Shown in pieces: positions 253-39,254 of a stretch of DNA of 64,000 nt. The notes below the pieces were generated by a model that made no database searches, was not told the origin of the DNA, and worked only from the letters and a program-made list of their open reading frames with translations. The DNA comes from Gemmatimonadales bacterium (GTDB taxonomy: Bacteria > Gemmatimonadota > Gemmatimonadetes > Gemmatimonadales > GWC2-71-9): NCBI GenBank assembly GCA_036505055.1, contig DASXUE010000021.1, positions 42,467 to 106,466 on the forward strand, given 5' to 3'. Each line of letters opens with the position of its first letter. The first letter of the stretch is position 1. The translations under genes and the position numbers were made by a program.

Positions 253-2229
<1,977 letters not shown>

Positions 2230-2249
<20 letters not shown>

Positions 2250-3762: not shown

Positions 3763-3992
3763 GACAGCGCTCACTGGTGGAAACCGGGGGGACAATCATT
3801 CACCGAGGGCCGCGGCGACACAAGAAGCAACGTCACCACAAGGTGGTTTCCGGCGATGATTCAACTCTGTGGCAAGATGCTGGCAACCGGAGCGCGATCG
3901 GGCGCCGCGCGGCGCCCGCGGGCAACATCGTAACTCAGTGTCACAACGCCGGTTACGTGGATCATCCGTGGGGCGGGGGAACGGCACGAAAG

Positions 3993-8900: not shown

Positions 8901-10345
8901 GTGACTGTCGCCACCGGGACGAGCGTGACGGAGATGGCCGCCGTACCGCTCTTCCCTTCGCTGGTCGCCGTGATCGCCGCGGACCCCGCGCCGACGCCAC
9001 TGACCAGGCCACTCGCCGACACCGTGGCGACGCCGGCTGCGCTCGTCGCCCACGTGACCGCGCGCCCGGTCAGAACGTTGCCTGCCGAATCCTTGGGGGT
9101 CGCCGTGAGCTGAGTCGTACCGCCGACCCGGATGCCCGCGGACGCCGGACTCACCGTCACCGTCGCCACGGGCACGGCGCTCACCGTGGCCGCGGCGGAT
9201 CCACTCTTGCCTTCGCTCGTGGCGGTGATCGTCGCGGATCCCGCCGCGACGCCGGTCATGAGCCCGCCGGCCGATACCGTTGCCACGGCCGGTGCGCTGC
9301 TCGCCCACGTGACCACGCGTCCCGTCAGCGGATTGCCATTCGCGTCCTTCGGAGTGGCGGTGAGCTGCGCCGTCTGACCGACCAGCACGCTCGGCGAGGC
9401 GGGGCTCACGGTTACCGAGGCCACCGGCACTGGGGTCACCGTGATCGCCGCCGTGCCGTTCCTGCCCTCACTACTGGCCGTGATCGTGGCCATCCCGGCA
9501 GCGCCGCCGGTCACCAGCCCGGTCCCACTCACCGCCGCCACCGGCGCGTTGCTCGTCGTCCAGGTGATCGTCCGCCCGGTGAGCGGATTCCCATTGGCGT
9601 CCCTCGGCGTCGCCGTCAGTTGCACGCTCTGGCCAGCCGTCACGCTCGCCGACGCGGGGCTCACCGTCACCGACGCCACCGGCACCACCGTCACCGTGAT
9701 CGCCGCCGTGCCGCTCTGCCCCTCACAGACGGCGGTCACCGTGGCGACACCCGCGGCCATGCCGCTCGCGAGCCCGCTGCCGTTGACGGTGACCACCCCG
9801 GGGTTGGTCGAGGCCCAGGTCACCACCCGCCCACTCAGCGCATTGCCGTCCGCATCGTACGGCGTCGCGGTCAGCTGCACCGTTTGCCCGATCATGACGC
9901 CCGCCGTGGCCGGACTGACCGCGACGGTCACCACCGTCGCGGGCGTCACCGTCACGACGGCCGTGTCAGACGGTCCTCCCGGATTCCCTTTGGCGACGAC
10001 TTTGACTTTTCCGGTATCCGCACCGGCCCGATAGCGTCCGCGATGCTGGCCGTTGGTCGTGCTCGTGTCGACGATGCTGCCGCTCGTGACGCTCCAGCTC
10101 ACCGCCATCGCGGCCGTGTCGCCCGTGCCCGTGACGCCGACGGCGGTGAAGTCGGTGGCTTGGTACTGCTGCAAGGTGAACGTCTTGGGGGAGACTTCGA
10201 GCCGATACGCATTCTCACCAACTGGCGGCCGCGTGGGCAACTCACACGAGACCACCGCGGCGATGGCCAGCGCCACCGCCGTGAAGCCGACGCCCTGCTG
10301 TCGCATCCGGGCCAGACGCTGGGCCAGCTTGAAGGTGAAAGGCAT
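5969..10345 (-). CDS. giant cell-surface protein: signal/lipobox, 1 divergent + 10 canonical Big_2 Ig-like domains, C-terminal beta-helix module
   Basis: ATG 10345 is preceded by GGAGGA (the ORF-track TTG at 10357 lies inside the SD). N-terminus ...AVALAIAAVVSC. Ten 85-aa units of the form VTVSPAS..QLTAT.KD..GN.L.GR.VTW..S...VATVS..GLV.G...GSATITATSEGKSG. The last ~470 aa are paralogous to the 2230-3762 product. Confidence 0.85.
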   Translation of the reverse strand: MPFTFKLAQRLARMRQQGVGFTAVALAIAAVVSCELPTRPPVGENAYRLEVSPKTFTLQQYQATDFTAVGVTGTGDTAAMAVSWSVTSGSIVDTSTTNGQHRGRYRAGADTGKVKVVAKGNPGGPSDTAVVTVTPATVVTVAVSPATAGVMIGQTVQLTATPYDADGNALSGRVVTWASTNPGVVTVNGSGLASGMAAGVATVTAVCEGQSGTAAITVTVVPVASVTVSPASASVTAGQSVQLTATPRDANGNPLTGRTITWTTSNAPVAAVSGTGLVTGGAAGMATITASSEGRNGTAAITVTPVPVASVTVSPASPSVLVGQTAQLTATPKDANGNPLTGRVVTWASSAPAVATVSAGGLMTGVAAGSATITATSEGKSGSAAATVSAVPVATVTVSPASAGIRVGGTTQLTATPKDSAGNVLTGRAVTWATSAAGVATVSASGLVSGVGAGSAAITATSEGKSGTAAISVTLVPVATVTVSPAAPSLVVGGAVQLTATTKDSAGNVLSGRVVTWTTSAAGVATVSAGGLVSGVAVGSATITATSEGKSGTAAVTVSAVPVATVTVSPASAGIRVGGTTQLTATPKDSAGNVLTGRALTWTTSAAGVATVSASGLVTGVGAGSATITATSEGKSGTAAVSVTLAPVATVTVSPAAPSLVIGGTVQLTATTKDSAGNVLGGRVVTWTTSAAGVATLSASGLVSGVAVGSATITATSEGKSGTAIVAVNAVPVATVTVSPVSASIRVGATAQLTATTKDSAGGVLTGRTVTWSTSAAGVATVSASGLVTGVAAGSATITATSEGKNGTSAITVTVVPVASVTIAPASVSLFVSKTAQLTATTKDSAGNVLTGRAITWVSSNTTVATVSAAGLVTAKVAGSATITATSEGKSGTAAVTVANVPVASVTVSPASASVAAGGTVQLAATTKDSAGGVLTGRAVTWASSNTGVASVNGTGLVTGLLAGSATITATSEGKSGSATVTVTTGGGTVHAGFYVTTTGSSGNDGSISRPWDLRTAMSGAGGRIKPGDTVWVRDGRYVGTFTGSLTGTSAAPIVMRAYPGERAILDGNGSALEGFTVDGSWAVYWGLEVMNSSTARSGDVLGLRPTGVYVRNANNVKLVNLIVHDTGHGTYTEYDAQNIEIYGWIIFNGGHQTSTRSDGHGIYIKNNTPGVKVARDNIIFNQFGFGIHGYSESSGTLKNLTFEGNVLFNNGELSTDDNPNLQIGGNLVADNDVVADNILYFSPGHGFWNIRMGYNTLLNGTTTVRNNYIVGGGEMTEVGYWQNLQWIGNTFVGDATMARLNDPSTSGQTWSGNLHYRDPAAKAWILKGTSYTFAGWQQATGLAATDQAIAGKPTAPKIVVRPNLYEPGRATVAIYNPTRQSSVSVDLTGIVPPGWLYEIRNVQQIFGAPVASGTFGGGALSFPMGGVTAQAPIGGSPNAPLVTGPDFNVFVVTSRAP
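7376..9925 (-). repeat. ten tandem 255-bp coding repeats (Big_2 domains)
   Basis: The 85-aa period can be read in the translation. Shadow ORFs 8161-8361 and 8671-8871 are near-identical at a 510-bp offset. Confidence 0.9.
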
Positions 10346-10355
10346 CGCTTCCTCC

Positions 10356-10485
10356 AAAAAAAAGAAGGCCGCCGGTTCGACCCCGAGAGGTCGACGCTGG
10401 CGGCCCGGCTGGCATGGCGGCTGATGCCGCGGTAGCCCCGTTAGCTCTGCGTCACCGCCTTTCGGCGGCTTTGCTCTGAGCAGCG
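10356..10485 (-). promoter_or_regulatory. structured 5' leader element, copy B (candidate riboswitch/attenuator) ending in terminator + U8, then SD and ATG of the giant gene
   Basis: Minus-strand RNA: CGCUGCUCAGAGCAAAGCCGCCGAAAGGCGGUGACGCAGAGCUAACGGGGCUACCGCGGCAUCAGCCGCCAUGCCAGCCGG + GGCCGCCAGCGUCGACCUCUCGGGGUCGAACCGGCGGCC + UUCUUUUUUUUGGAGGAAGCGAUG. Confidence 0.55.
10367..10405 (-). terminator. intrinsic-terminator-like hairpin with U-tract inside the leader
   Basis: Outer stem GGCCGCC/GGCGGCC plus inner stem UCGACC/GGUCGA, followed by UUCUUUUUUUU (A8 on the plus strand at 10356-10363). Confidence 0.55.
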
Positions 10486-10519
10486 CTGGTCGTCATTGTC
10501 CGACTCCCTGGCGGGCGGC

Positions 10520-10651
10520 GGAAAACGAAACCGGGCCGCCGCAATCGACTGGAGTCGATTCGCTGGCGGCCCGGCTGGCATGGCGGCTGGTGCCGCTGTA
10601 GCCCCGTTGGCTCTGCGTCACCGCCTTTCGGCGGCTATGCTCTGAGCAGCG
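10520..10651 (-). promoter_or_regulatory. structured leader element, copy A (tandem duplicate, 166-nt period)
   Basis: The 5' ~80 nt are nearly identical to copy B. The hairpin GGCCGCCAGCGAAUCGACUCCAGUCGAUUGCGGCGGCC keeps the outer stem but has a different, still self-complementary, inner stem. It is followed by CGGUUUCGUUUUCC. Confidence 0.5.
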
Positions 10652-10803
10652 TTCGTATTGCAACGCGGAGTCGGTCACCCGACTCAGCGCGTTTGGACCC
10701 CGGGGAGGCAAGATGTGTTCCCGACGCCACGGGAAAGGCGCTGCCGTGCGAGCCGCGCGTCACTTAGCGCGCGTGATTTGATGTGACTTGGGAGGCTGTT
10801 GTG

Positions 10804-10841
10804 GTACCGCAATATGCATTGAACAACGCAGTTTGCGGTAC
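10804..10841 (-). terminator. long stem-loop 7 nt after the stop of the 10849-12915 gene (no U-tract)
   Basis: GUACCGCAA-AC-UGCGUU-GUUC-AAUGCA-UA-UUGCGGUAC, i.e. 9 + 6 bp. Confidence 0.4.
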
Positions 10842-10848
10842 TTTGCGC

Positions 10849-12915
10849 TCACTGAGGTCGACTCGTGACCACAAAAACGTCGAATGCCGGCCCCGTCACG
10901 AGCGGGGCGTTCGGGCTCCCACCGATCGGTGCCTCGGCCGTCACGCCGTTCGTCGGGACCTGTACCACCCCGCCGCCGTAGGTGCCGCTCGCCACCGGCG
11001 GACCGAAGGGCGTCTGCACGTTCCGGATCTCGTACGCGTACCCCGGGGTCACGACCCCGCTGAGATCGACGCCGACGCTCCCCTGTCCGCCCCAATTGTA
11101 AATCGCCACCGTGGCCCGGCCGGCCTCGTACAGATGGGGACGGATCACGACCTTGGTCGACGTCGGCGGCTGCGCAATGGCCTGGTCTCCGCTGGCGAGT
11201 CCCGTCGCCAGCTGCCACTGGGGGAACGTGTATTCCGGGATCAGGTAGCGCCATTCGGCCTGGGTCGGGTCGCGGTAATGGAGGTTTCCGCTCCAGGTGT
11301 GCCCGCTGGTGTTGGGATCCTGCAGGCGAATCATGTCGGCCGTCCCGATGAAGCTGTTGCCCAGAACCTGTAGGCCCGCCCAGAAGCCCACTTCCATGAT
11401 CTCGCTGCCACCCACGATGTAGTTGTTGCGCACGACGGCGTGGCCGTTGGGATATATCGAGAATGGCTGCCCCATGCGGACGTTCAACCCGCCGTGCCCG
11501 GGCGAAAAGTAGGTCAGGTTGTCCGCCACGAGATCGTTGTCCGCGACGCGCAGGCCCCCGAGCAGCAGGTTCGGGTTGTGGTAGTCCGACAACTCGCCGT
11601 TGTTGAACAGGATATTCCCGGTGATCAGGAGATTCCGCAGCGCGCCGTCCGATTCGGTGTAGGCGTGGATCCCGTGGCCGAACTGGTTGAAGATCACGTT
11701 GTCCCGGACCACCACGTCCCCGGGGCCGTCGTGCTTCACATAGATCCCGTGCCCGTCCGAACGGGTGCCGTTCTGATGGCCGCCGTTGAAGATGATCCAC
11801 CCGTAGATCTCGATATTGTGGGCGAAGTACGCGATGAAGGTCCCGTGGCCGGCGTCGTGCACGATCAGGCTGATCAGCTTGACGTTGCTGGCGTTGCGCA
11901 CGAAGACCCCGGTCGGCCGGAGCCCCAGCCCGGCGCCAATCCGGTCGGTCATCGAGTTCATAATCTCGAGCCCCCAGTACACCGCCCACGAGCCGTCGAC
12001 GTCGAACGTGCTGCCGCTGTTGCCGCCGTTGCCGTCGATGATCGCTCGCTCGCCCGGATAGGCCCGCACCACGATCGGCGCGGCGGCGGTCCCGGCCAGC
12101 GAGGTCGTAAACGACCCCTGGTACGTGCCGCCCCGGACCCAGACCGTGTCCCCGGGGTGTACGCGCCCGCCGGCGCCCGAGAGGGCCGTCTGGAGGTCCC
12201 AGGGGGCGCCCGCGCTTCCGTCGCCGGCGCCCGAGCCATTGGGCGCCACGTAGTGGCCGACAGGCAGGACCACGACCGTGGCCGCCACGCCGGCACCAGC
12301 AAAGGTGGCGACGATCTGCGTCCCGCCCGCGCCCTGCGCCGTGACGGTGGCCGTGCTGTCGCTCGTCGACTTCACGGCCGCGACGCCGGGGGCGAGCGTC
12401 GCCCAGACGACCGGTCCGGCGACGGGATCGCCCAGCTCGTCCCGTACCCGTGCCGTGAGCACGCCCGAGTCGGCGACGATCAGGGTATCCAGGACCGGCT
12501 CGATCGTGATCGTGACGCTGCCCAGCGCGACCTCGATAGCGACCTGGCCGGAGAGCGGTGTGAGCGTGATTTGGATGGTCGGGGTTGACCCAGCGTGGAC
12601 GTCGAGGACCGTCGTGCCGCGGTGGGTCTCGATACCCCCCGCGTCGTACGCGTGCATCGTGAGCGTCCGGTTCGAACCGGCCGGCAGCGCGACGCTGCCG
12701 ATGGCGAGCCCGTTCGTGACCGGGATGTTGAAGACGAGCGGCGCCGTGATGTCGGGGGCGGTGACCTGCACCACGACGAGCGCCACCGAGGTCGCCGACA
12801 CGTCGGCCCGCAGCACGAGGGTCACGGTGGGGGGGACGGAAGGTGGGCGCGTCAGGTCGCCCGGCGCGCAGGCCGCCAGCCCTAAACACAAGCCTAACAA
12901 CGCGGAACGCGACAT
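10849..12915 (-). CDS. lipoprotein: Ig-like + Big_2 N-terminal module fused to beta-helix module (paralog 3)
   Basis: ATG 12915 gives MSRSALLGLCLGLAAC (lipobox). The N-terminal ~190 aa are paralogous to the 13726-14403 product. The C-terminal ~470 aa are closely similar to the giant protein tail. Confidence 0.8.
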   Translation of the reverse strand: MSRSALLGLCLGLAACAPGDLTRPPSVPPTVTLVLRADVSATSVALVVVQVTAPDITAPLVFNIPVTNGLAIGSVALPAGSNRTLTMHAYDAGGIETHRGTTVLDVHAGSTPTIQITLTPLSGQVAIEVALGSVTITIEPVLDTLIVADSGVLTARVRDELGDPVAGPVVWATLAPGVAAVKSTSDSTATVTAQGAGGTQIVATFAGAGVAATVVVLPVGHYVAPNGSGAGDGSAGAPWDLQTALSGAGGRVHPGDTVWVRGGTYQGSFTTSLAGTAAAPIVVRAYPGERAIIDGNGGNSGSTFDVDGSWAVYWGLEIMNSMTDRIGAGLGLRPTGVFVRNASNVKLISLIVHDAGHGTFIAYFAHNIEIYGWIIFNGGHQNGTRSDGHGIYVKHDGPGDVVVRDNVIFNQFGHGIHAYTESDGALRNLLITGNILFNNGELSDYHNPNLLLGGLRVADNDLVADNLTYFSPGHGGLNVRMGQPFSIYPNGHAVVRNNYIVGGSEIMEVGFWAGLQVLGNSFIGTADMIRLQDPNTSGHTWSGNLHYRDPTQAEWRYLIPEYTFPQWQLATGLASGDQAIAQPPTSTKVVIRPHLYEAGRATVAIYNWGGQGSVGVDLSGVVTPGYAYEIRNVQTPFGPPVASGTYGGGVVQVPTNGVTAEAPIGGSPNAPLVTGPAFDVFVVTSRPQ

Positions 12916-13084
12916 CTCGTCCCACAGTCGCAAGAAGAGGGCCGTGCTTGTCTTGGGGGGCGAGTCGCAAGCTTCCACGGTTTTGTATCACCGGAGTTAC
13001 ATGGCCGCCCGGAGGAGTGCTCAAACTGCCCACAGACTGGCGGCGCCGGAACGGCAAGGTCCTTGCGCCTGTGTTCGAATTCCG

Positions 13085-13729
13085 ATGCCGCTCCACCGTG
13101 TGGTCGCCGCCGCCGTTGCGGCGCAGCTCGCCTTGGCAGGGTGCTCTGACGCTGGTGGTCCACCGGCGCCCGCCACCATTGTCGTCCATGCCTCCCTGGC
13201 GGGGACCTCCGTCACGACGGTGGTCGTCGAGGTCAGCGCCGCCGACATTCCCTCGCCCCTCGTCTTCAACCTCACGGTGGCGAACGGTGTCGCCAACGGC
13301 GTGCTCACCCTCCCCGCCGGCTCGAGCCGCACGATCGCCGTGCGCGCCTATGACGCCGGCGGCATCCAGACCCACACGGGCACGACGACGCTGGACGTGC
13401 AGCCCGGCGCCACGCTGACCTTGTCGCTGACGCTGACCGGCCTGGTCGGCGGCATCGACATCACGGTCACGCTGGGGCACCTCACCATCACCGTGTCGCC
13501 CCCCAGCGGATCCGTCGCCGCCGGAGGGACGTTCCCGCTCACCGCGACGATCGCCGACGAGCACGGAGCTCCAGTGGCGGCCTCGGTTGTGTGGGCGACG
13601 GCCAACCCGGCGATCGCCACCGTGGACGGTGCGGGTCTCGTGACGGGAGTGGCCGCCGGTCAGACGAACGTCGTCGCGACGTTCGGCGGCGCGGCGGGCC
13701 ACGCGGCGATCACCGTCACCGGCCCGTGA
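13085..13729 (+). CDS. lipoprotein with Ig-like + Big_2 domains
   Basis: ATG 13085 gives MPLHRVVAAAVAAQLALAGC (lipobox). Same two-domain layout as its neighbours. Only the downstream part of ORF 12278-13729 is credible. Confidence 0.7.
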   Translation: MPLHRVVAAAVAAQLALAGCSDAGGPPAPATIVVHASLAGTSVTTVVVEVSAADIPSPLVFNLTVANGVANGVLTLPAGSSRTIAVRAYDAGGIQTHTGTTTLDVQPGATLTLSLTLTGLVGGIDITVTLGHLTITVSPPSGSVAAGGTFPLTATIADEHGAPVAASVVWATANPAIATVDGAGLVTGVAAGQTNVVATFGGAAGHAAITVTGP

Positions 13730-14403
13730 TCCGGTGCGCCGGCGGGTGGCGGACGCTCGCCCGTCGCGGCAGCCTCGCCGCCTGTCTGTGGCTCGCCGCG
13801 TGCCTGCCCGGCGACCCCACGCGCCCTGAGCCGGTGGGCGTCACCCTCGTCGTCCGGGCTCAGGTGTCGGCCACATCCGTCGCGCTGGTCGTGGTCCAGG
13901 TCACCGCTCCCGACATCACTACGCCACTCGGCTTCAACATCCCCGTGACGAGCGGCCTCGCGGTGGGGAGCGTCACGCTTCCGGCGGGGTCGCATCGGAC
14001 GCTCACGATGCGCGCGTACGACGCCTCGAGTGTCGAGACCCACCGCGGCGCGACGATCGTCGACGTCCATGAAGGGACGAACCCGACCGTTCAGGTGACC
14101 CTGACGCCGCTCAGCGGGCAGATCCCCATCGAGGTGGAGCTGGGCAGCGTGACGGTGACGATCGTGCCGGTGGCGGACACGGTGGCCGTCGCCGACTCGG
14201 GCCTGCTCACGGCACGCGTGCGGGACGGGGTCGGCGCTCCGGTGCCCGGCCCCGTGAGTTGGGCGACGCTCGCTCCCAACATCGCGCTCGCCCGTGCGAC
14301 GAGCGACAGCACGGCGACGGTCACCGCGCGAGGCACCGGCACGACTCAGATCTTCGCGGCGTTTGGCGGGGTCGGCGCCACGGCCACGATCGTGGTGCCC
14401 TAG
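13726..14403 (+). CDS. lipoprotein with Ig-like + Big_2 domains (close paralog of the N-terminus of the 10849-12915 product)
   Basis: GTG 13726 overlaps the upstream TGA (GTGA). Lipobox ...LAACLWLAAC. About three quarters identical by eye to residues ~30-218 of the 10849-12915 product. Confidence 0.7.
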   Translation: MIRCAGGWRTLARRGSLAACLWLAACLPGDPTRPEPVGVTLVVRAQVSATSVALVVVQVTAPDITTPLGFNIPVTSGLAVGSVTLPAGSHRTLTMRAYDASSVETHRGATIVDVHEGTNPTVQVTLTPLSGQIPIEVELGSVTVTIVPVADTVAVADSGLLTARVRDGVGAPVPGPVSWATLAPNIALARATSDSTATVTARGTGTTQIFAAFGGVGATATIVVP

Positions 14404-14882
14404 CGCAGCAGCGTCTTCAGCGGCACGTCGCCGCTGCCGCGCAGCGCGACGCGCTTGTCGCCGAGCGGCGTGTCGAGCAGCACGGCGCCGGTGATCCCGT
14501 AGCGCAGCCCCTGGCGCGTGAGCAGCCCGCGCGCCGCCGCCCCCACCCCGGACCACTGAAACCGCACCGGCATCACGACCTGGCTGTGGTTCACCGGCGA
14601 GAGATCGAGCGGCTTGTCGATCAGCGCGTCACCGAAGTGGGTGCCCTCGAGGTCGAGGCCGACCTCGAGACGGGTGCTGCGAATGCGGTAGTCGTTCGGG
14701 TTGTACACGTCGAACACGAGGTCGAGCGTGCCGCCGGTGAGGCTCATCCCCGTGACGTTGATCTGTTTCAGCTGAATTTGCGGCTCCTCGAACTTGAGGA
14801 CGGCGCGGAGGGTGGCACAACCGGACGCCACGAGACAAGACGCCAAGACGCCAACGAGCACGGCGTGGCGTCTTGGCGTCAT
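14400..14882 (-). CDS. LEA_2/WHy-like lipoprotein
   Basis: ATG 14882 gives [22 protein letters not shown]. The body (INVTGMSLTGGTLDLVFDVYNPN...) resembles LEA type-2/NDR1-like domains. ATGA overlap with the rarA stop. Confidence 0.65.
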   Translation of the reverse strand: MTPRRHAVLVGVLASCLVASGCATLRAVLKFEEPQIQLKQINVTGMSLTGGTLDLVFDVYNPNDYRIRSTRLEVGLDLEGTHFGDALIDKPLDLSPVNHSQVVMPVRFQWSGVGAAARGLLTRQGLRYGITGAVLLDTPLGDKRVALRGSGDVPLKTLLR

Positions 14883-14888
14883 GGCGTC
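14837..14888. repeat. inverted pair of (GGCGTCTT)n octamer arrays forming a 14-bp perfect hairpin
   Basis: 14839-14852 (gacgccaagacgcc) is the reverse complement of 14867-14880 (ggcgtcttggcgtc). The loop is 14 nt. Confidence 0.85.
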
Positions 14889-16198
14889 GCCTTTTTCTTG
14901 AGATCCTCCCACCACTCTATCCTCTCTTTCACGGTCTTCTCGTACCCAAACTCCGTCGGCTCGTACCATTTCACCCCCCGCAGCGTGTCCGGCAGGTATT
15001 CCTGTGGCGCGTACGCATTGTCGTGTGCGTGCGCGTACTTGTACCCCGCCCCGTAGCCCAGGTCTTTCATCAAGGGTGTCGGCGCATTGCGCACATGGAG
15101 CGGCACGGCGTCGGCGGGGTGGTCACGGGCCGCGTCCATCGCCCGCCCGAACGCTTCATACACGCGGTTCGATTTCGGCGCCGTGGCCAGATAGACGGCG
15201 GCTTCCGCCAGCGCCAATTCCCCCTCGGGCGAGCCCAGGAAGTGGTAGGCATCCTTGGCCGCCAAGGCGACCGAGAGGGCCCGCGGGTCCGCGAGCCCCA
15301 CATCCTCGGCGGCGATGCGCACCAGCCGGCGCGCGAGGTACAGGGGGTCCTCGCCTCCCGCCAGCATCCGGGCGAGCCAGTACAGCGACCCCTCGACGTC
15401 GCTGCCACGCACCGCCTTGTGGAGCGCGGAAATCAGATTGAAGTGGGATTCACCCGACTTGTCGTAGACAGGAAGGGGCTTCTCGAGGACCTGCAGCACG
15501 ACGTCGCGGGATACGGGATGCGGGATGCGGGATGCGTGAATGTGTTTGAGCACCGCTTCCAGCGTATTGAGACCGCGTCGGGCGTCACCTTGAGCGTGAC
15601 TGACGAGCAGCTCGACTCCTTCGGGGCTCACGCATCCCGCATCCCCCATCCCGCATCCCGCCTGCTCCAGCGCTCTCCGGATCACCGTCCGGATGTGCTC
15701 GTCCGTCAGCGGCTCGAGCACGAACACCCTGCACCGTGAGAGCAGGGCGCCCGTCAGCTCGAAGCTCGGGTTCTCGGTGGTCGCGCCGATCAGGGTGATG
15801 ATACCGTTTTCGACCCAGGGGAGAAACGCGTCTTGCTGCCCGCGGTTGAACCGGTGAATCTCGTCGCAGAAGAGGATCGTCCCCTGGCCGTTGTACTTGA
15901 GGCGCTCTTCGGCCTCTTTGATGATCTCGCGCACCCGGCCCACCCCTTCGGTCACGGCGGAGAAGGGCTCGAAGTGACGCTCGGTGTAATTGGCGATGAT
16001 CCGCGCCAGCGTCGTTTTCCCCGACCCGGGCGGCCCCCAGAAAATGCACGACCCCACGTCGCCGCGGCGGATCAAGTCGCCCAGCGCTTTCCCAGGACCA
16101 AGGAGGTGCTCCTGCCCGAGGAACTGCTCGAGGTTGCGAGGCCGCATGCGCGCGGCGAGGGGCTCGGTGGAGCCTTGGAAGAGCGTGGGTTCAGACAT
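14879..16198 (-). CDS. rarA: replication-associated recombination protein A (AAA+ ATPase)
   Basis: ATG 16198 (MSEPTLFQG...). Walker [10 protein letters not shown], Walker [10 protein letters not shown], and the [23 protein letters not shown] and YWLARML motifs. Confidence 0.9.
15506..15661. repeat. inverted pair of (GCGGGAT)n heptamer arrays inside rarA
   Basis: Arm 15506-15536 is gcgggat acgggat gcgggat gcgggat gcg. Arm 15631-15661 is cgc atcccgc atccccc atcccgc atcccgc. The spacer is 94 nt. Confidence 0.9.
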
Positions 16199-16199
16199 G

Positions 16200-16691
16200 T
16201 CGGGATGCGGGATGCGGGATGCGGGGTGCGTGCAAACCGCACCAGCACGCGGCGAATTGATGGTGAGCAACGTGCTGCCGGAGCTTACCTTCTCGAACGT
16301 GAGCAAGCTCAATCGCCTGGATGCTTGGCGCACAGCCCAAGAACTCGCCTACCAGTCTCATCTCCTGACCCTCGCTCCTCAGTTGAGCCGGCATTTCGCT
16401 CTCATTGATCAGATTCGTCGGGCCGCACTCTCTGTTCCTGCGAACATCGCGGAGGGCTACGCCCTGGGGACGACACCGCAGTTCCTTCGTGGTCTCAAGA
16501 TTGCGCTTGGATCTAACACGGAGCTCTACAGCCATCTGACCGTGCTCGCCAGACTTGATCTCGTCCCATCGCCGGACGTGCGCCTGGTGCTTGATTTGTG
16601 TAATCGAGTAATTGCGATGACCATCGGTCTCATTCGCAAGCTGAGTCTTCGCCCATCGTAACGCATCCCGCATCCCGCATCTCGCATCCCG
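16200..16691 (+). mobile_element. IVS-like/miniature cassette: four-helix-bundle gene bounded by ~30-bp inverted heptamer arrays
   Basis: Arms at 16200-16230 and 16662-16691 are reverse complements. The cargo is on the opposite strand to its neighbours and is visibly more AT-rich. The unit fills the gap between the ZIP stop and the rarA start exactly. Confidence 0.5.
16260..16661 (+). CDS. four-helix-bundle protein (23S rRNA-IVS protein / Avd-like family)
   Basis: ATG 16260, 133 aa. Family hallmarks ...QIRRAALSVPANIAEGY... and ...IALGSNTELYSHL.... The upstream part of ORF 15990-16661 is antisense to rarA and was rejected. Confidence 0.8.
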   Translation: MVSNVLPELTFSNVSKLNRLDAWRTAQELAYQSHLLTLAPQLSRHFALIDQIRRAALSVPANIAEGYALGTTPQFLRGLKIALGSNTELYSHLTVLARLDLVPSPDVRLVLDLCNRVIAMTIGLIRKLSLRPS

Positions 16692-17411
16692 TCAAGACAC
16701 AGAGTCCAGAATTGCCTTCGTTACGAAGAACACCACCGCACCCGCAAAGAAGACGGTAGGAAGTTTCCAGCCGGCCTTCCCTTGAAACTCGGGCACCAGG
16801 TTCGACGCCGCGACGTAGAGCGTCACGCCGGCGGACAGCGCGAGGCCGTGCCGCACGAGGAAGCCCACGTGATCGGTCAGCAGCACCCCGAGGAGCGTCG
16901 CCGCTCCCAGGAGCCCGGCCGCGCCGACGCCCTGCCCGCCCGAGCGCCCCCCGGCCACGATCAGACTCGAGATCATGACCCCTTCCGGCAGCTTGTGCAG
17001 GAAGATCGCCACGAACACCATCACGCCGAGCTCGGGGCGCACCAGAAACGCGCTCGCGATCGCCACGCCATCGAAGAAGGTATGGAGCAGCAACCCGACC
17101 AGCGCCGACGTGCCGGCAATCCGCGTCACCGCGTGCGTCTCCTCACCGAAGTGGAAGTGCGGCGTGACGGTGTGTTGCGTGAGATGCACGGCCAGGTAGC
17201 CGGCGAGCACGAGGGCGGGCGCGAACGGACCACTCCGGCTCAGGGCCGCGGGGAGGATCTCGACGATCGCGACGGCGAGCATGAACCCGGCCCCGAACGC
17301 GACGAAGTGCTCGATGAGCTTGAGGCTGCCGGCGGCGCGGCGCGTGACCGCGAGGCCGCCGATGACGTTGCCGAGCGCCGCGACCAGCGCGTACACCAGG
17401 GCGTTAGACAC
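16692..17411 (-). CDS. ZIP family metal transporter
   Basis: HKLPEG signature, HTFFDG motif and multiple TM segments. Putative GTG 17411 overlaps the upstream TAA. The start is uncertain. Confidence 0.8.
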   Translation of the reverse strand: MSNALVYALVAALGNVIGGLAVTRRAAGSLKLIEHFVAFGAGFMLAVAIVEILPAALSRSGPFAPALVLAGYLAVHLTQHTVTPHFHFGEETHAVTRIAGTSALVGLLLHTFFDGVAIASAFLVRPELGVMVFVAIFLHKLPEGVMISSLIVAGGRSGGQGVGAAGLLGAATLLGVLLTDHVGFLVRHGLALSAGVTLYVAASNLVPEFQGKAGWKLPTVFFAGAVVFFVTKAILDSVS

Positions 17412-17655
17412 GGGAGAGGAGGTACGCCTTGGTGTTGCGCGCAGGGTCCTCGAGGACCTCGGCGAGCAGGCGCCGCAGCATCTCGCCGACGTCCGGCCCG
17501 GGCCGCACACCGGCGGCGATCAGGTCCTCGCCCTTCACCGCCAAATCCTTCAGCGTGAGGGGCGGATTCGCCGCCCGAACCGCCGTGACCGCTTTCCGGA
17601 CGGGTTCCGGCCCCAGCACGAGCAGGTCGTCCGCGTACTCCCCGACCTGCGACAA
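17404..17655 (-). CDS. cca: C-terminal domain of the CCA-adding enzyme, in frame immediately after an internal TGA
   Basis: Same frame as 17656-18567. ...LAVKGEDLIAAGVRPGPDVGEMLRRLLAEVLEDPARNT... matches the typical CCA/PcnB-family C-terminal tail. There is no SD of its own. Confidence 0.5.
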   Translation of the reverse strand: MSQVGEYADDLLVLGPEPVRKAVTAVRAANPPLTLKDLAVKGEDLIAAGVRPGPDVGEMLRRLLAEVLEDPARNTKAYLLSRV

Positions 17656-18963: not shown

Positions 18964-19698
18964 TCATCCGCACAGCACGCTCCCCCCGTTGACGTTCAGA
19001 ATCTCCCCGGTGATATGCCGGGCGAGGTCGGAGCACAGGAACGCGATCGGTCCGGCGACGTCTTCCGCGCTCGCCACGCGCCCGAGCGGGATCGTCCGCT
19101 CGATCGCACCCCTCCCCCGTCCCCCGTCCCGTTCGTACGGTCCCTGGCTCATCTCGGTATCGACCCACCCCGGCGCCACGCAGTTCACGGTCACCCGCGG
19201 CGCCAGCTCCACGGCGAGCGACTTCGTGAGCGAGATGACCGCGCCTTTGGTGGCGGCGTAGTCGGCGTGGAACGCTTCGCCGCGCTGGCCGGCCGTGGAT
19301 GACACGAGGACGATCCGGCCGCCGTCCGGCAGGTGCGGAATGGCGGCGCGGCACACGTAGAACACGGCGTCGAGGTTGGCCCGGCGGGTCGCCTCCCACT
19401 GCGCCTCGGGCAGGCGGGCGAGGGGCACGTCGTCCGATGGCCAAATGCCGTGGTTCACGATGAGGAGGTCGAGGCCGCCGAGGCTCCGCACGACGTCGTC
19501 CACGGCGCGCTTGGCCGTGGCCGCATCACCGAGATCGCCCTGAATCGTCGCGCTGACCGCCGGGTCGGGCTCGGGCTTCCGGCTGCGGTATCCGGCGGCG
19601 ACTTTCGCACCCGCGCGGGCGAGCAGCCGCGCCGTGGCCAGCCCGATTCCCCGCCCTCCGCCCGTGACGAACGCGCGCTTGGCCGCGAGGTCGATCAC
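18964..19698 (-). CDS. SDR family oxidoreductase (FabG-like)
   Basis: TGGGRGIG cofactor motif, YAATKGA active-site region, 244 aa. Confidence 0.85.
   Translation of the reverse strand: MIDLAAKRAFVTGGGRGIGLATARLLARAGAKVAAGYRSRKPEPDPAVSATIQGDLGDAATAKRAVDDVVRSLGGLDLLIVNHGIWPSDDVPLARLPEAQWEATRRANLDAVFYVCRAAIPHLPDGGRIVLVSSTAGQRGEAFHADYAATKGAVISLTKSLAVELAPRVTVNCVAPGWVDTEMSQGPYERDGGRGRGAIERTIPLGRVASAEDVAGPIAFLCSDLARHITGEILNVNGGSVLCG
19109..19131. repeat. orphan (GGGGGAC/GTCCCCC)n heptamer array inside the SDR gene
   Basis: cccctcc cccgtcc cccgtcc cg; the first 21 nt are identical to the left arm in accB. Translated as ...ERDGGRGRGAI.... Confidence 0.8.
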
Positions 19699-21273: not shown

Positions 21274-23885
<2,612 letters not shown>

Positions 23886-33355: not shown

Positions 33356-35533
33356 CTATTCACTCAAGTCTTCGAGGCCCACGAGCACGTCTCGCGGTTT
33401 CGACCCGTTGGCCGGACCCAGGATTCCCGCCAGCTCGAGCTGATCGATGATGCGCGCCGCGCGGCCGTACCCGATGCTCATGCGCCGCTGCAGCAGCGAC
33501 GTCGAGCCGAGCTGGTTCTGAATGCACACCTCGGCGGCCTGTCGGAACAGCGGATCGCGCTCCCCTGACTCCTGGCTCCCAACTCCTTCTTCGCCTTGCT
33601 TCTCGGCCTCCTCGATCGCCGCCACCTGCTCGTCGATCGTCGGCTTGCCGGGGACTGGGGCGGCCGCGCGGGGCGCGTGCGCCTTGTACCACTCCATCAG
33701 GCGCTCCGTCTCGTCCGTCGAGATGAACGCCCCCTGCACACGCATCGGCTCGCTCTTGCCCGGCGGCAGGAATAGCATGTCGCCGTTCCCGAGCAGCGTC
33801 TCGGCGCCGTTCTGGTCCAGGATCGTGCGGCTGTCCACCTTGGCCGAGACGCGGAACGCGACCCGGCAGGGGAAGTTGGCCTTGATGAGTCCCGTGATCA
33901 CGTTCACCGACGGCCGCTGCGTGGCGAGGAGGAGGTGAATCCCGACGGCGCGGGACTTCTGGGCCAGCACCGCAAGCGGCGTCTCGATCTCGCTCTGGAC
34001 GGTCAGCATCAGATCCGCCAGCTCGTCCACGATGAGCACGACGTACGGGACGATGCCATCGGTGTACTCGGCATCGAACGGCAGCTCCTTTTGGATACCG
34101 GCCTGGGTGGCGAGCGTCTCGCGTGGGCCCTGCAGCGGCCGCTTCTCTTCCACCTTCTTGTTGAAGTCGGCGATGTTGCGCGCGTGGTTGGCGTGCAGCA
34201 GCCGGTAGCGCCGCTCCATCTCCCACACGGCCCACTTCAGGACGTTCGCCGCTTTGTGGTGGCTGGTCACCACCGGCAGCCCCAGATGGGGCAGTGCCGC
34301 GTACATCGACAGCTCCACCATCTTCGGGTCGATCATCAGCAGCTTCAGTTTATCGGGCGGATGGGCGTACACGAGGCTCGTGATGATCGCGTTGATGCAC
34401 ACCGACTTCCCCGACCCGGTGGCGCCAGCGATCAGCAGGTGGGGCATCTTGGCGAGGTCGTCCACCACCTCGTCGCCTTCCAGGTTGCGGCCCAGCACGA
34501 CCGGCAGCGTGCGGGTCGGGCGTCGGAACTCCGCCGTGTCGATCAGCTCGCGGACGTGCACCATGCGCGGCGTGGGATTCGGCACCTCGATGCCGATCGC
34601 CGCCTTGCCGGGAATCGGCGCGACGATCCGCAGCGACTGGGCCCGCATGGCGAGCGCCAGATCGTCGGCGAGCCCCGCCACGCGTCCCACCTTCACGCCG
34701 CGTCCCGGCGTCAGCTCGAATCGCGTCACCACTGGTCCCACGGTGCGGTCCGCGATCTGCGCCCCGACGCGGAACGTCTCGAGCGTCGCCACCAGCCGGC
34801 GGCCCATTTCCTCGATCTGCGCCGCGTCGGCATCGGCGACAGCGCCGGGACCTTCGTTCAACAACTCTATAGGCGGGATCAAAGAGCCCGCAGGGGGCGG
34901 TGTGGGCTTGGGGAGCAGTGCGCTCTTGGACTTGCGCTCTTTCGGGAAACGAGAAACGGGAAACGGGGCAGGCGCAGCCGACGCGTCCGGCTCGCGCTTC
35001 GCCTTGAGACCTACCCTCTCCGTTTCCCGTATCTCGTTTCCCGTTTCCCGGCTTCTCAGCAGTGCCAGCGGATGCCACCCGATCGTCACGATGCCCAGCG
35101 CCGAGAGCGCGAACACTCCCGCCAGAACGCCGCCCGCCGTTCCCACGGCGCCCTGGAGGCCCGCGGCCAGGAATGCCGGCAGCAGGCCGACGAGTTTCTG
35201 GGTCGCGCTCCATAGCGCGTAGTCGAACGGGAAGTGGGGGCCGATCGCGATGCCGATGCCGTAGGGCACGAGCAGGATCAGGCCGGCGCCGAGCACCGCG
35301 GCGCGTCCCGACGACAGGGGCCCCAGCCGTCCGAACGCGGCCAGCGCCCACCCGACGCCCAGCATCGGCACGATCACAGCCCCCAGGCCCAGCACCTTCC
35401 ACAACAAGCCGCCGATGGAGCGCCCCCAGCTGCCCGTCAGGGGCAGCTGTAGCAGCGTGAGGCCCAGGAACAGGCCCACGACGAGGGCCGCGATGCCGAT
35501 GAGCTCTTGCCGGTGCGCGTCCTTCGGCTTCAT
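33356..35533 (-). CDS. ftsK: DNA translocase FtsK
   Basis: ATG 35533 (ATGA overlap with comB). N-terminal TM segments, IAGATGSGKSV Walker A, and a C-terminal winged-helix gamma domain (IGYGRAARIIDQLE). Confidence 0.95.
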   Translation of the reverse strand: MKPKDAHRQELIGIAALVVGLFLGLTLLQLPLTGSWGRSIGGLLWKVLGLGAVIVPMLGVGWALAAFGRLGPLSSGRAAVLGAGLILLVPYGIGIAIGPHFPFDYALWSATQKLVGLLPAFLAAGLQGAVGTAGGVLAGVFALSALGIVTIGWHPLALLRSRETGNEIRETERVGLKAKREPDASAAPAPFPVSRFPKERKSKSALLPKPTPPPAGSLIPPIELLNEGPGAVADADAAQIEEMGRRLVATLETFRVGAQIADRTVGPVVTRFELTPGRGVKVGRVAGLADDLALAMRAQSLRIVAPIPGKAAIGIEVPNPTPRMVHVRELIDTAEFRRPTRTLPVVLGRNLEGDEVVDDLAKMPHLLIAGATGSGKSVCINAIITSLVYAHPPDKLKLLMIDPKMVELSMYAALPHLGLPVVTSHHKAANVLKWAVWEMERRYRLLHANHARNIADFNKKVEEKRPLQGPRETLATQAGIQKELPFDAEYTDGIVPYVVLIVDELADLMLTVQSEIETPLAVLAQKSRAVGIHLLLATQRPSVNVITGLIKANFPCRVAFRVSAKVDSRTILDQNGAETLLGNGDMLFLPPGKSEPMRVQGAFISTDETERLMEWYKAHAPRAAAPVPGKPTIDEQVAAIEEAEKQGEEGVGSQESGERDPLFRQAAEVCIQNQLGSTSLLQRRMSIGYGRAARIIDQLELAGILGPANGSKPRDVLVGLEDLSE
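34942..35049. repeat. inverted pair of (CGGGAAA)n heptamer arrays in the ftsK linker
   Basis: Arm 34942-34967 is cgggaaa cgagaaa cgggaaa cgggg. Arm 35019-35049 is ccg tttcccg tatctcg tttcccg tttcccg. The spacer is 51 nt. Confidence 0.9.
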
Positions 35534-38767: not shown

Positions 38768-39254
38768 TGGGATCCACCCGGAAGAGGACTTGCCCGAACT
38801 CGACCGGCTGCGCGTTCTGCACGCACACTTCCTTCACGACTCCGCCGACCTCGGACTCGATCTCGTTCATGATCTTCATCGCTTCGATGACGCACACCAC
38901 CTGACCGACAGTGACGCGGCTCCCGACCTTCACGTAGGGCTGAGCGCCGGGCTCGGGGGCCGCATAGAAGGTCCCGACCATGGGAGACGGAATCCCGAGC
39001 AGATGGGAGGCGGGGGCTGCCACCGACCCCTCCCCCGTCCCCCGTCCCCCTTCCCCGGGCCGGGAGAGGGGGGACGGGGGAAGGGTGGGCTGCGCCACCA
39101 CGACGTGGCCGCCCGCGTTCCCCACCGCGTGGCCGGCTTTCGAGACCCGGACGGACGACCAAGCGCCGAACCACCCGCGCCGGATCTCGATGGCGCCCAC
39201 GTCCGGGGCGTCCTTCAGGATCTGCACGAGCTGCGCGATGATGTCGAGCTTCAT
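38760..39254 (-). CDS. accB: acetyl-CoA carboxylase biotin carboxyl carrier protein
   Basis: ATG 39254. The C-terminal biotinyl domain carries EAMKIMNEI. Only the C-terminal 164 codons of ORF 38760-40130 are credible. Confidence 0.9.
   Translation of the reverse strand: MKLDIIAQLVQILKDAPDVGAIEIRRGWFGAWSSVRVSKAGHAVGNAGGHVVVAQPTLPPSPLSRPGEGGRGTGEGSVAAPASHLLGIPSPMVGTFYAAPEPGAQPYVKVGSRVTVGQVVCVIEAMKIMNEIESEVGGVVKEVCVQNAQPVEFGQVLFRVDPNG
39027..39089. repeat. imperfect inverted pair of (GGGGGAC)n heptamer arrays in the accB linker
   Basis: Left arm: cccctcc cccgtcc cccgtcc cccttcc ccg. Spacer: ggc. Right arm: cgggagaggggggacgggggaagggtggg. Confidence 0.85.

Follow-up and report, generated by a model that had tools for sequence, protein, structure and literature searches.

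A PF05635 gene between inverted heptamer arrays

In the window, that is, the whole stretch of 64,000 nucleotides that was analyzed, positions 16198-16694 are a discrete gene cassette, in which a gene of the PF05635 family is enclosed by two inverted heptamer arrays. The cassette and its neighbors comprise the following features.

14879..16198, minus strand: rarA/mgsA, AAA+ recombination-associated ATPase; downstream gene of the interrupted pair
16198..16232, no strand: left arm, made up of four G-rich heptamers in tandem, (G/T)CGGGAT three times and then GCGGGGT, directly after the rarA start codon
16286..16291, plus strand: TACCTT, a -10-like TANNNT box 13 nt upstream of GTG 16299; predicted internal promoter of a leaderless 4HB mRNA
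16299..16661, plus strand: gene of a four-helix-bundle (4HB) protein (PF05635/TIGR02436; fold family of XCC0516, S23p, and Avd), probably 120 aa from GTG 16299
16659..16694, no strand: right arm, made up of four C-rich heptamers in tandem (CGCATCC-type) and reverse-complementary to the left arm, ending at the ZIP stop
16692..17510, minus strand: ZIP-family metal transporter gene; upstream gene of the interrupted pair

The first-pass annotation of this DNA had described inverted (GCGGGAT)n arms adjoining the rarA start and the ZIP stop, and both points are borne out. A repeat search of the window returns the (GCGGGAT)~4 arrays as arms of 34 nt (16198-16231 and 16661-16694) that are 91% complementary and 429 nt apart, and TRF finds period 7 and 4.3 copies in each of them. 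The rarA start codon is the CAT at 16196-16198, the left arm beginning one base beyond it, and the right arm terminates at the ZIP stop, the TCA at 16692-16694. Judging by relatives, in which the ZIP protein has 234-240 amino acids, the true start of this gene is probably near 17400. Minimum-free-energy folds predict a closing stem of ~33 bp on both strands, close to the ~30-bp stem expected earlier for a read-through transcript. The sequence GCGGGATGCGGGAT, with at most two mismatches, occurs 20 times in the window, compared with 1.9 ± 1.2 times in shuffled sequences (0 of 100 shuffles reach 20).

The assignment of the enclosed ORF to the four-helix-bundle family, which had been left to an HMM search, holds. 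PF05635 is its sole Pfam match (81.6 bits, cut-off 33.8), TIGR02436 is matched with 82.6 bits (cut-off 24), and the structure of XCC0516 (PDB 2GSC) is matched with an E-value of 8.5e-16, query residues 18-128 corresponding to chain residues 12-122. PADLOC and PHROGs contain no match for the protein. Searches for PF05635/TIGR02436 homologues gave 1185 proteins in one case and more than 5000 in another, and the best match among the GTDB representatives is 59-60% identical. The gene is antisense to rarA and ZIP and, as its A/T-ending codons had suggested, deviates in composition: its GC content is 0.57 and its GC3 0.62-0.65, far below the GC3 of rarA (0.83), ZIP (0.89), and alaS (0.88).

The longest ORF does have the 133 codons reported previously, from ATG 16260; this length is probably overstated, because homologues begin at the codon aligned with GTG 16299, which would leave 120 amino acids. 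A scan of 15900-17000 for the sigma-70 consensus found no promoter. The TACCTT box was recognized by aligning 4HB alleles: a -10-only TANNNT box stands 11-13 nt upstream of the start codon in 21 of 36 distinct alleles, the background being 0.004 per position, and we suggest that it is the promoter of the 4HB gene. The gene is under purifying selection, being intact in 41 of 41 cassette loci with a median dN/dS of 0.20.

The ZIP-rarA junction in related genomes

Loci of relatives with RarA 67-93% identical were compared. The cassette is present in 41 related loci, and 39 others have ZIP next to rarA and lack a 4HB gene there. In the latter the ZIP stop and the rarA start mostly overlap in GTGA, and in some loci the genes are 3-25 nt apart. 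Empty sites with a coupled junction had been anticipated from the window alone, as had flanking arrays in those relatives that possess the gene, and both were found. The refuting conditions named in the first-pass annotation were all checked, and none of them held. Arrays are absent from all empty junctions except that of locus L140, which retains a single remnant array. By this comparison, the cassette lies precisely at the point of overlap between ZIP stop and rarA start in cassette-free relatives.

Fitch parsimony requires at least 19 gains or losses of the cassette, and there are 25 discordant nearest-neighbor cases, with RarA distances from 0.006 upwards. For instance, between L159 and L107 the cassette is a clean indel with identical flanks. 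In some other cassette/empty pairs the ZIP flank differs too, so part of the presence/absence variation can be put down to ordinary homologous recombination over a larger tract. The cassette itself can also be replaced. L004 and L006 have RarA proteins 93% and ZIP proteins 92% identical; their 4HB proteins are only 58% identical, and the arms consist of GCGGGAT in one and CGGGAAA in the other, the new arms of L004 being nested within remnants of older ones. With RarA identity matched, 4HB identity is 0.71 in pairs sharing the heptamer unit versus 0.59 in pairs with different units. In these alignments gene and arms change together, alleles being swapped for ones with another heptamer, and linkage alone can explain the correlation between gene and arm unit.

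Ten 4HB proteins that were looked up or tested, 42-93% identical to that of the window, are encoded between rarA and ZIP, always in antisense, and every close homologue looked up (at least 61% identity) is at the rarA/ZIP locus; more distant paralogues are at other loci. The cassette had been called mobile. Repeated gain, loss, and allelic replacement agree with this, and hopping from site to site does not, as the close homologues share one locus. We conclude from these phylogenetic comparisons that the cassette has been repeatedly gained, lost, and swapped among related soil Gemmatimonadales.

Heptamer hairpins in the window and in other phyla

Further heptamer arrays of the window form the following inverted pairs.

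15506..15663, no strand: gene-less inverted (GCGGGAT)n pair in rarA; arms 15506-15540 and 15628-15663, translated in frame
23193..23346, no strand: gene-less inverted (GCGGGAT/GCGGGAA)n pair in alaS; arms 23193-23218 and 23312-23346, native LEIWNLVFMQ between them
34943..35050, no strand: gene-less inverted (CGGGAAA)n pair in the linker region of ftsK
39026..39085, no strand: back-to-back (CCCGTCC)n/(GGGACGG)n palindrome in a lipoyl-domain protein gene; the rare C-first configuration

One of the three GCGGGAT pairs in the window encloses a gene. The gene-less pairs of rarA, alaS, ftsK, and the lipoyl-domain protein gene are all in frame. The co-localization of arrays and 4HB genes that the first-pass annotation had raised is one-directional: other copies of the array exist, and many of them enclose no gene. 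The gene-less arrays stand in place of loop codons and hardly alter the length, if at all, and the 87 nt between the arms of the rarA hairpin are native coding sequence. This hairpin folds with z = -7.5, and its position is kept in 67 of 75 relatives while the heptamer unit turns over. It could have been a by-product of the neighboring cassette; this was rejected, as 30 of 38 empty loci still have it. Its arms co-vary, with 75% of cells paired versus 36-55% when the partners are slid, and with 279 double-change cells, a number attained in 0 of 500 shuffles (142 ± 11). RNAalifold on 77 rarA segments missed the long stem through shifts of repeat register in the alignment, and an explicit structure with pair counts recovered it. 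Alignments of this kind show that gene-less examples of such hairpins hold fixed loop positions inside essential genes and that their arms co-vary. With both gathering and E-value thresholds, Rfam gave no family on the arms or the cassette, only chance-level miRNA matches on the rarA hairpin, and no rRNA anywhere in the window.

Several families of heptamer units coexist in each genome. The rarA hairpin is built of GCGGGAT in 20 of 27 loci with a GCGGGAT cassette, versus 7 of 39 empty loci (p = 8e-6), and only 31% of the remaining arrays in a locus, versus 11% in the control, have the same unit as the 4HB arms there. The coupling between the cassette and the rarA hairpin can be due to local gene conversion ~540 bp away or to shared ancestry. 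Heptamer hairpins of the G-first type, in which the G-rich arm is 5' of the C-rich arm on either strand, occur throughout the genome, and the cassette arms are part of this population; the ratio of G-first to C-first pairs is 96:2 when they enclose a gene and 51:4 when they do not. A fixed polarity relative to the gene, with the G-rich arm upstream of it, was considered and dropped, as a G-first pair reads identically on both strands and the property is one of the pair.

The architecture is not specific to Gemmatimonadales. In 76 of 82 4HB loci from many phyla the flanking inverted repeats exceed the 99th percentile of a null built on 690 intervals drawn at random from these loci, with arm periods of 7 or 8. 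There are 429 arrays of period 7, and periods 6, 8, and 9 are represented by 13-42 arrays. In Xanthomonas, the accB-4HB-accC locus (XCC0516 family) has arms of the GGGAATC type, and repeat #15 of Rehm et al. (PMC4692102) overlaps the start codon of XCC0516. By these sequence comparisons, almost every sampled member of this 4HB clade, in many phyla, is set in the same architecture. In the literature on PF05635, TIGR02436, S23p, STRR, and heptamer repeats we found no paper linking the family to flanking heptamer arrays. A paper on TAACTGA repeats concerns direct repeats upstream of start codons, seemingly a different phenomenon.

Relation to known systems and possible mechanism

We know of no function assigned to the very large PF05635/TIGR02436 family outside diversity-generating retroelements, and to our knowledge the tandem heptamer repeats of cyanobacteria, Xanthomonas, and Geobacter have been described without a function. 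The locus studied here ties the two together, as the gene is nearly always situated in the loop of an inverted-array hairpin and undergoes gain, loss, and replacement jointly with its arms, both at operon junctions and in rRNA.

Among the closest known counterparts of the cassette are the intervening sequences (IVSs) of 23S rRNA. Those that carry an ORF, in Leptospira, Coxiella burnetii, and Brucella, have a lower G+C content than the host, are sporadic, and show signs of horizontal acquisition (PMC4990558). The IVS of C. burnetii has a 28-bp stem whose cleavage by RNase III was demonstrated, and 3-4 tandem heptamers (GACAGAT) in front of the S23p ORF (PMC4990558). The cassette resembles them in its PF05635 family, its length (~430-490 nt in both), a stem of ~28-33 bp formed by terminal inverted repeats, the position of the ORF in the loop after tandem heptamers, low G+C content, sporadic distribution, and signs of horizontal acquisition. 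It differs in being located at the stop/start overlap of two protein-coding genes, rarA and ZIP, and antisense to both, instead of in 23S rRNA; in that both arms consist wholly of tandem heptamers and that it probably has a -10 box of its own; and in its intact ORF under purifying selection, the S23p ORF of Coxiella being in decay. By analogy, the cassette is an IVS-like element outside rRNA, whose stem would be cleaved by RNase III; such an element had been proposed from the window alone, and the heptamers of Coxiella make the analogy closer than was then realized.

The arms also resemble the dispersed repeats of Xanthomonas and the cyanobacterial STRR repeats in their G-rich heptamers, the preference for four units, and the convergent pairs. 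Rehm et al. (2015, PMC4692102) described G-quadruplex-forming GGGAATC and GGGGA(C/T)T heptamers in Xanthomonas and Nostoc, preferentially in four units, conserved in position between species and variable in length and sequence. The Xanthomonas repeats are found genome-wide, with 70-75 convergent inverted pairs per genome; no function was found, and the repeats were not connected to the 4HB gene (PMC4692102). The cassette arms have the GGGNNNN unit, ~4 tandem units, and convergent pairing of these repeats, and their folding into a G-quadruplex is putative. The repeats of Xanthomonas are mostly intergenic, whereas Gemmatimonadales have several unit families and many pairs in frame within essential genes. 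In Geobacter metallireducens, paired tandem 7-mer/8-mer "global regulator sites" include elements of four GGACCGG heptamers, no associated protein having been identified (PMC2700814), and the supplementary files of that paper contain no S23 or four-helix-bundle term. The likeness extends to 3-5 tandem heptamers or octamers and to many opposite-strand pairs with variable spacing, within and between genes, and a (CCGGTCC)x4.4 array is found by TRF at 21611-21641 of the window.

A further parallel is the REPIN-RAYT system, since the 4HB gene is flanked by an inverted repeat that is also dispersed as gene-less pairs. There, a single-copy, vertically retained RAYT gene lies between inverted copies of a repeat, and the same repeat is dispersed as gene-less hairpin doublets. 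The RAYT protein is an HUH/Y1 transposase of known chemistry, and REPINs lie outside genes and do not consist of tandem heptamers. The cassette gene, in contrast, does not encode an HUH/Y1 transposase, we know of no catalytic activity of the 4HB fold, and gene-less pairs can have native coding sequence in their loop. The last point also sets the gene-less pairs apart from the Rickettsia palindromic elements. These are likewise palindromic repeats, tolerated in frame in protein genes and translated as loop insertions, but they are inserted whole, whereas here two separate arms overwrite loop codons and the native sequence between them is kept.

We assign a probability of roughly 55% to an explanation that combines the cassette as described with four mechanistic steps. 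Its descriptive part, that is, the cassette, its site, its turnover, its generality, and the population of G-first hairpins, we regard as very secure. The arrays would act in cis as the ends of the cassette; recombination inside an array or from one array to another would exchange cassettes, and intrastrand template switching would maintain the complementarity of the arms, a step for which we see about even odds. Somewhat less probably, the 4HB gene would use its -10 box as a promoter of its own and yield a leaderless mRNA lacking the left arm, and the ZIP-rarA read-through transcript, which would contain both arms, could form the ~33-bp stem, a putative RNase III substrate that would uncouple the two cistrons. 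More tentatively, the 4HB protein, whose crystallized relative is a homopentamer (PMC4990558), could be a trans-acting partner that binds 4-5 tandem heptamers, and the gene with its arms would then relate to the dispersed gene-less pairs as the RAYT gene does to REPINs. Finally, and doubtfully, the G-first rule might exist because a C-rich arm that is transcribed first would be an exposed Rho loading site.

Of the alternatives, the one that survives best, although we consider it unlikely, is that of neutral or selfish hairpins combined with ordinary recombination. Arrays would arise by slippage and pairs by template switching (quasipalindrome correction), the 4HB gene would be merely linked to them, and neither arms nor protein would have a function here. 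Templated correction predicts that loop codons are overwritten at constant or nearly constant length, as observed, and the differing ZIP flanks of some cassette/empty pairs and the solo array of L140 agree with it. So does the wobble-asymmetry test, meant to separate selection at the RNA level from that at the DNA level, which was symmetric between the strands. It is hard, however, to obtain 4HB genes in loops in 76 of 82 loci, in many phyla and with unrelated units, by linkage alone, and purifying selection on the gene, the strong G-first polarity, and the constant position of the rarA hairpin despite the turnover of its unit also speak against neutrality.

A pure RNA-processing module, in which the arms only form a double-stranded stem for RNase III and the 4HB gene is a loop passenger unrelated to the repeats, is improbable as well. 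The stem predicted on both strands, the fold of the rarA hairpin, the cleavage demonstrated in the Coxiella IVS (PMC4990558), and the covariation of the arms are what it would lead one to expect. Yet in the wobble-pair test on both strands G-U pairs did not exceed A-C mismatches (34 vs 27, 82 vs 91, and 99 vs 145), so there is no sign of RNA-level selection on pairing. Further, the predicted leaderless 4HB mRNA would lack the 5' arm, and cuts at stems inside the coding sequences of rarA, alaS, and ftsK would destroy essential mRNAs. The tandem heptamers, the preference for ~4 units, and the location of 93% of the sampled 4HB genes in loops are left unexplained.

The cassette could also be a non-autonomous, MITE-like transposon, with the arrays as terminal inverted repeats for a transposase encoded elsewhere and the 4HB gene as cargo; we consider this quite improbable. 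Terminal inverted repeats are indeed present, the L159/L107 indel is clean, older arms surround one cassette, gains and losses recur in scattered parts of the tree, and the window cassette is flanked by an imperfect repeat of the junction (TGTCTTGAC ... TGTCTGAAC). This repeat is absent or different in L159 versus L107, however, and the comparison of cassette with empty loci yielded no convincing or consistent target-site duplication. Arms vary from 3 to ~10 units among loci, gene-less pairs enclose native host coding sequence and not inserted DNA, and among the close homologues looked up there are no multiple identical copies at unrelated loci. No transposase is encoded near the syntenic loci looked up, and no enzyme for mobility is present.

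Two further explanations we consider very improbable. Coincidence, in which a resident 4HB gene happens to lie between two generic G-quadruplex-forming heptamer repeats at gene boundaries, as known in Xanthomonas and Nostoc, would draw on the abundance, four-unit preference, and convergent pairing of such repeats independently of any gene (PMC4692102) and on the several gene-less pairs of the window; it is highly improbable given the 76 of 82 flanked genes against 690 random intervals, the empty sites that lack both gene and arrays, and the joint replacement of the two. Least probable of all is an Avd protein of a diversity-generating retroelement, or its remnant: Avd belongs to the same fold superfamily (PMC10053308) and is a nucleic-acid-associated cofactor and four-helix-bundle pentamer, and the way in which arrays overwrite loop codons at almost unchanged length bears a superficial likeness to retrohoming, but the cassette has no template/variable repeat pair nearby, no reverse transcriptase is among the genes called within ~6 kb in the syntenic loci L001, L003, L004, L165, L167, and L170, and it is as a stand-alone gene that the 4HB gene is conserved.

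Returning to the combined explanation, we gain from it the hypothesis that the 4HB protein is a repeat binder and the repeats are the cis sites of a repeat-protein system. In a wider form, which we put forward as a rather unlikely possibility, stand-alone PF05635 pentamers may be the missing trans-acting partners of G-rich tandem-heptamer arrays in general, including STRR, the GGGAATC repeats of Xanthomonas, the Geobacter pairs, and the hairpins of Gemmatimonadales. Each paralogue would recognize its own heptamer, one unit per subunit, from a gene in the loop of the cognate hairpin, in a system like REPIN-RAYT, and the ORF-bearing 23S IVSs would be a special case that landed in rRNA. A crystallized and genetically tractable model is at hand in XCC0516, between accB and accC of Xanthomonas.

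Some 4HB homologues carry N-terminal extensions of 149 amino acids ("MRDAGC...") or C-terminal tails ("HPASRIPH..."); both are translated repeat arrays, of which annotators should be aware.

The four-helix-bundle cassette at the rarA-ZIP junction

The gene encoding a four-helix-bundle (4HB) protein forms a discrete unit with the inverted arrays of tandem heptamers (arms) on its two sides, inserted at the overlap of a stop and a start codon. The window (69% G+C) has its closest relatives among soil Gemmatimonadales MAGs. The features of the cassette are:

16198-16232: left arm, about 4.3 tandem GCGGGAT heptamers
16286-16291: TACCTT, a TANNNT box located in the allele alignment
16659-16694: right arm, about 4.3 tandem heptamers, the complement of GCGGGAT

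The arms, 34 nt long, are 91% complementary and 429 nt apart; a count of GCGGGAT dimers with at most two mismatches gives 20 for the window, where 1.9 are expected. The left arm lies one base on from the rarA start codon, and the right arm terminates at the stop codon of the ZIP transporter gene. Both these neighbors are on the minus strand and have a GC3 of 0.83-0.89, while the 4HB gene is on the plus strand with a GC3 of 0.62-0.65. Its product scores 81.6 bits against PF05635 and 82.6 bits against TIGR02436, and matches the crystallized Xanthomonas protein XCC0516 (PDB 2GSC) with an E-value of 8.5e-16. The first-pass annotation had proposed the bounding arms, their position against rarA and ZIP, the opposite strand, the compositional offset and the protein family, and all of these are confirmed. 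Its 133-codon reading frame is probably too long, as the alignment of 41 alleles places the conserved start at the codon aligned with GTG 16299, giving 120 aa. A TANNNT box is found 11-13 nt upstream of this start in 21 of 36 distinct alleles (background 0.004 per position). We infer from this sequence pattern that the box is an internal -10 element, which would produce a leaderless 4HB mRNA without the left arm.

Many database homologs (among P0002-P0036, P0073, and P0092) are annotated as a 149-aa form beginning 'MRDAGC...', and others have C-terminal tails such as 'HPASRIPHHASRISHPD'. These extensions are translated flanking heptamer arrays, and therefore are probably start and stop mis-annotations.

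The close homologs looked up, together with more distant GTDB relatives (42-93% identity to the window protein), reside between rarA and ZIP, antisense to both. A metagenome scan with RarA yielded 80 loci (78-86% identity), which were pooled with the loci fetched earlier. The 4HB gene is present in 41 loci of the pool, with arms detectable on one or both sides in nearly all of them. In the other 39 (empty) loci the ZIP gene adjoins rarA, mostly by a GTGA overlap of the ZIP stop and the rarA start, and by a 3-25 nt gap in the remainder; this is the coupled junction expected by the first-pass annotation. No arrays were detected at these 39 junctions, except for a single array kept as a remnant in L140.

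The cassette has been repeatedly gained, lost, and replaced. Its presence or absence changes at least 19 times on the RarA neighbor-joining tree, and in 25 cases nearest neighbors are discordant, at RarA distances of 0.006 or more. What separates L159 from L107 is a clean indel, the flanks being nearly identical. Other pairs diverge in the neighboring ZIP sequence as well, and therefore homologous recombination over a larger tract can account for some of the polymorphism. No consistent target-site duplication was seen in the cassette/empty junction comparisons. As for replacement, the occupied loci L004 and L006 are 93% identical in RarA and 92% in ZIP but only 58% in the 4HB protein, and have GCGGGAT and CGGGAAA arms, respectively; in L004, degenerate CGGGAAA remnants enclose the nested GCGGGAT arms. 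At matched RarA identity, the 4HB identity is 0.71 for the same arm unit and 0.59 for different units. The 4HB gene is under purifying selection, being intact in 41 of 41 cases with a median dN/dS of 0.20.

Upstream of rarA, L118 and L121 contain symmetric nested arms, [ATGGGGG][ATGCGGG]-gene-[ATGCGGG][ATGGGGG], which suggests either successive insertions or layered arm growth keeping outer-outer and inner-inner pairing. The 84% identical homolog P0022, whose reading frame extends into rarA in antisense, is assigned to a Chloroflexi MAG; either the contig was misbinned or the locus was transferred between phyla.

Heptamer arrays outside the cassette

Arrays of this kind also occur outside the cassette, which corrects the first-pass picture. 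Further inverted pairs in the window, with no 4HB gene between the arms (gene-less pairs), are:

15506-15540 / 15628-15663: gene-less GCGGGAT pair within rarA, in frame
23193-23218 / 23312-23346: gene-less GCGGGAT pair within alaS, in frame
34943-35050: CGGGAAA inverted pair in the ftsK linker
39026-39085: CCCGTCC pair in a lipoyl-domain protein gene

The inter-arm sequence in rarA and alaS is native, conserved coding sequence. The rarA arrays align to E. coli MgsA (3PVS) without gaps and differ by a single residue from an array-free relative; therefore loop codons were overwritten rather than inserted. The Gemmatimonadales heptamer units contain no stop codons in any of the six frames. Of 75 relatives, 67 have the rarA pair at the same position; among the empty loci it is there in 30 of 38. 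Its units vary (ATGCGGG, AAACGGG, AGAGGGG, CGTGGGG, ACACGGG, and others). In an alignment of 77 sequences, 75.3% of cells are paired in the named 31-pair stem, compared to 36-55% with partners slid by 1-3 columns. Double-change cells number 279 versus 142 +/- 11 in shuffles (0 of 500 reach 279), and the folding z is -7.5. Of the 27 loci with a GCGGGAT cassette, 20 use this unit in the rarA hairpin too, compared to 7 of the 39 empty ones (p = 8e-6), a coupling compatible with a shared trans-acting factor and equally with local gene conversion or shared ancestry. The alaS inter-arm segment (23219-23311) has 52% G+C, the gene overall 67%, and the rarA segment 62%.

The arms co-vary, and the association of 4HB genes with arrays is family-wide. 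A scan with one genome per GTDB species yielded 80 loci from Gemmatimonadota, Cyanobacteria, Alphaproteobacteria, Planctomycetota, Acidobacteriota, Armatimonadota, Chloroflexota, and others. When the 200 nt 5' of the gene were aligned to the reverse complement of the 200 nt 3' of it, the median score was 47.5, versus 18 for 690 random intervals of the same loci, and 76 of 82 4HB loci exceeded the 99th percentile of the null. The arms are almost always tandem 7-mers, at times 8-mers, with lineage-specific units; in 1.26 Mb of loci, 429 arrays have period 7 versus 31, 42, and 13 with periods 6, 8, and 9. The pairs follow a polarity rule, by which either strand read 5' to 3' meets the G-rich arm before the C-rich one (G-first to C-first, 96:2 for gene-enclosing pairs; 51:4, p = 2e-11, for gene-less pairs). 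The XCC0516 orthologs in Xanthomonas are placed in sense orientation after the accB stop and before the accC start, with a GGGAATC x4 array to one side of the gene and a CCCATTC-type x4 array to the other. The left array is repeat #15 of Rehm et al., noted for 'overlap with start codon' of XCC0516, with the gene family unremarked (PMC4692102). In L021 (Moorena sp.), very dense multi-unit heptamer arrays of up to ~245 nt surround the 4HB gene (~1700-13600), and its arms are among the few C-first pairs.

Known systems and a proposed mechanism

The closest known entity is the ORF-bearing intervening sequence (IVS) of 23S rRNA, which has in common with the cassette the protein family, size, closing stem, upstream heptamers, and compositional offset, but is defined by its location in 23S rRNA, where the cassette does not reside. 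These common features, the empty junctions, and the gain and loss support the first-pass proposal of an IVS-like 4HB cassette living outside rRNA. Two other known kinds of repeat match the arms. One is the G-quadruplex-forming heptamer repeat of Xanthomonas and Nostoc, a repeat of no known function that favors four units and forms convergent pairs (PMC4692102); the other is the paired tandem-repeat site described in Geobacter metallireducens (PMC2700814). REPIN-RAYT systems follow a similar logic, but the cassette protein is not a transposase. A diversity-generating retroelement is rejected, as the syntenic loci have no nearby reverse transcriptase. In the literature, incompletely covered, no paper linking PF05635 genes to flanking heptamer arrays was found; the cassette has the broader implication of connecting the 4HB family with the tandem heptamer repeats, both of them so far unexplained.

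We propose a mechanism of four steps, given in decreasing order of confidence. First, the arrays would be the cis-acting ends where cassettes are exchanged, and arm complementarity would be maintained by template switching between the arms, which fits the nesting of arms, the solo array left in L140, and an overwriting that nearly preserves length. Reading the arms as RNA structures only is disfavored by the lack of a G-U excess over A-C mismatches on either strand (34 versus 27 in the cassette arms of this locus, 82 versus 91 at other loci, 99 versus 145 in the rarA hairpin). Second, the ZIP-rarA read-through transcript is predicted by folding to contain a stem of ~33 bp, close to the ~30 bp of the first-pass annotation; by analogy with the Coxiella IVS, whose stem is an RNase III substrate (PMC4990558), it could be cleaved by RNase III, uncoupling the two cistrons. 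Third, the 4HB protein, a crystallized relative of which is described as a toroidal homopentamer (Lin et al. 2006, cited in PMC4990558), would bind the 4-5 tandem heptamers. The fourth step concerns the G-first rule, by which RNA capable of loading Rho would not be transcribed first. Since C-rich, G-poor RNA is known to load Rho at rut sites, the rule may reflect avoidance of such RNA.

Other repeats and elements of the window

A tandem-octamer inverted pair (GACGCCAA / TGGCGTC, 12 nt apart; 14824-14888), an 8-mer version of the heptamer-hairpin theme, covers the stop of rarA and, in the gene downstream, which encodes a LEA_2-family lipoprotein, the start and the region coding for the signal peptide. 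Unpaired arrays are (CCCGTCC)x3 within an SDR gene (19107-19131) and (CCGGTCC)x4.4 (21611-21641), the latter heptamer being the one reported from Geobacter metallireducens as a 49-copy element, GGACCGG. A tandem repeat with a 255-nt period (7416-9721; ~8 copies, 72% matches) is probably the repeated Ig-like domain array of a large surface protein gene. The 558-nt inverted repeat (12269-12826 / 13839-14396; 78% complementary) corresponds to two divergent paralogous genes with similar N-terminal regions (Ig-like/lipoprotein). Finally, two c-di-GMP-I riboswitch aptamers (56 and 53 bits; gathering score 35) are found in tandem on the minus strand at 10396-10485 and 10562-10651, with ~80 nt between them.
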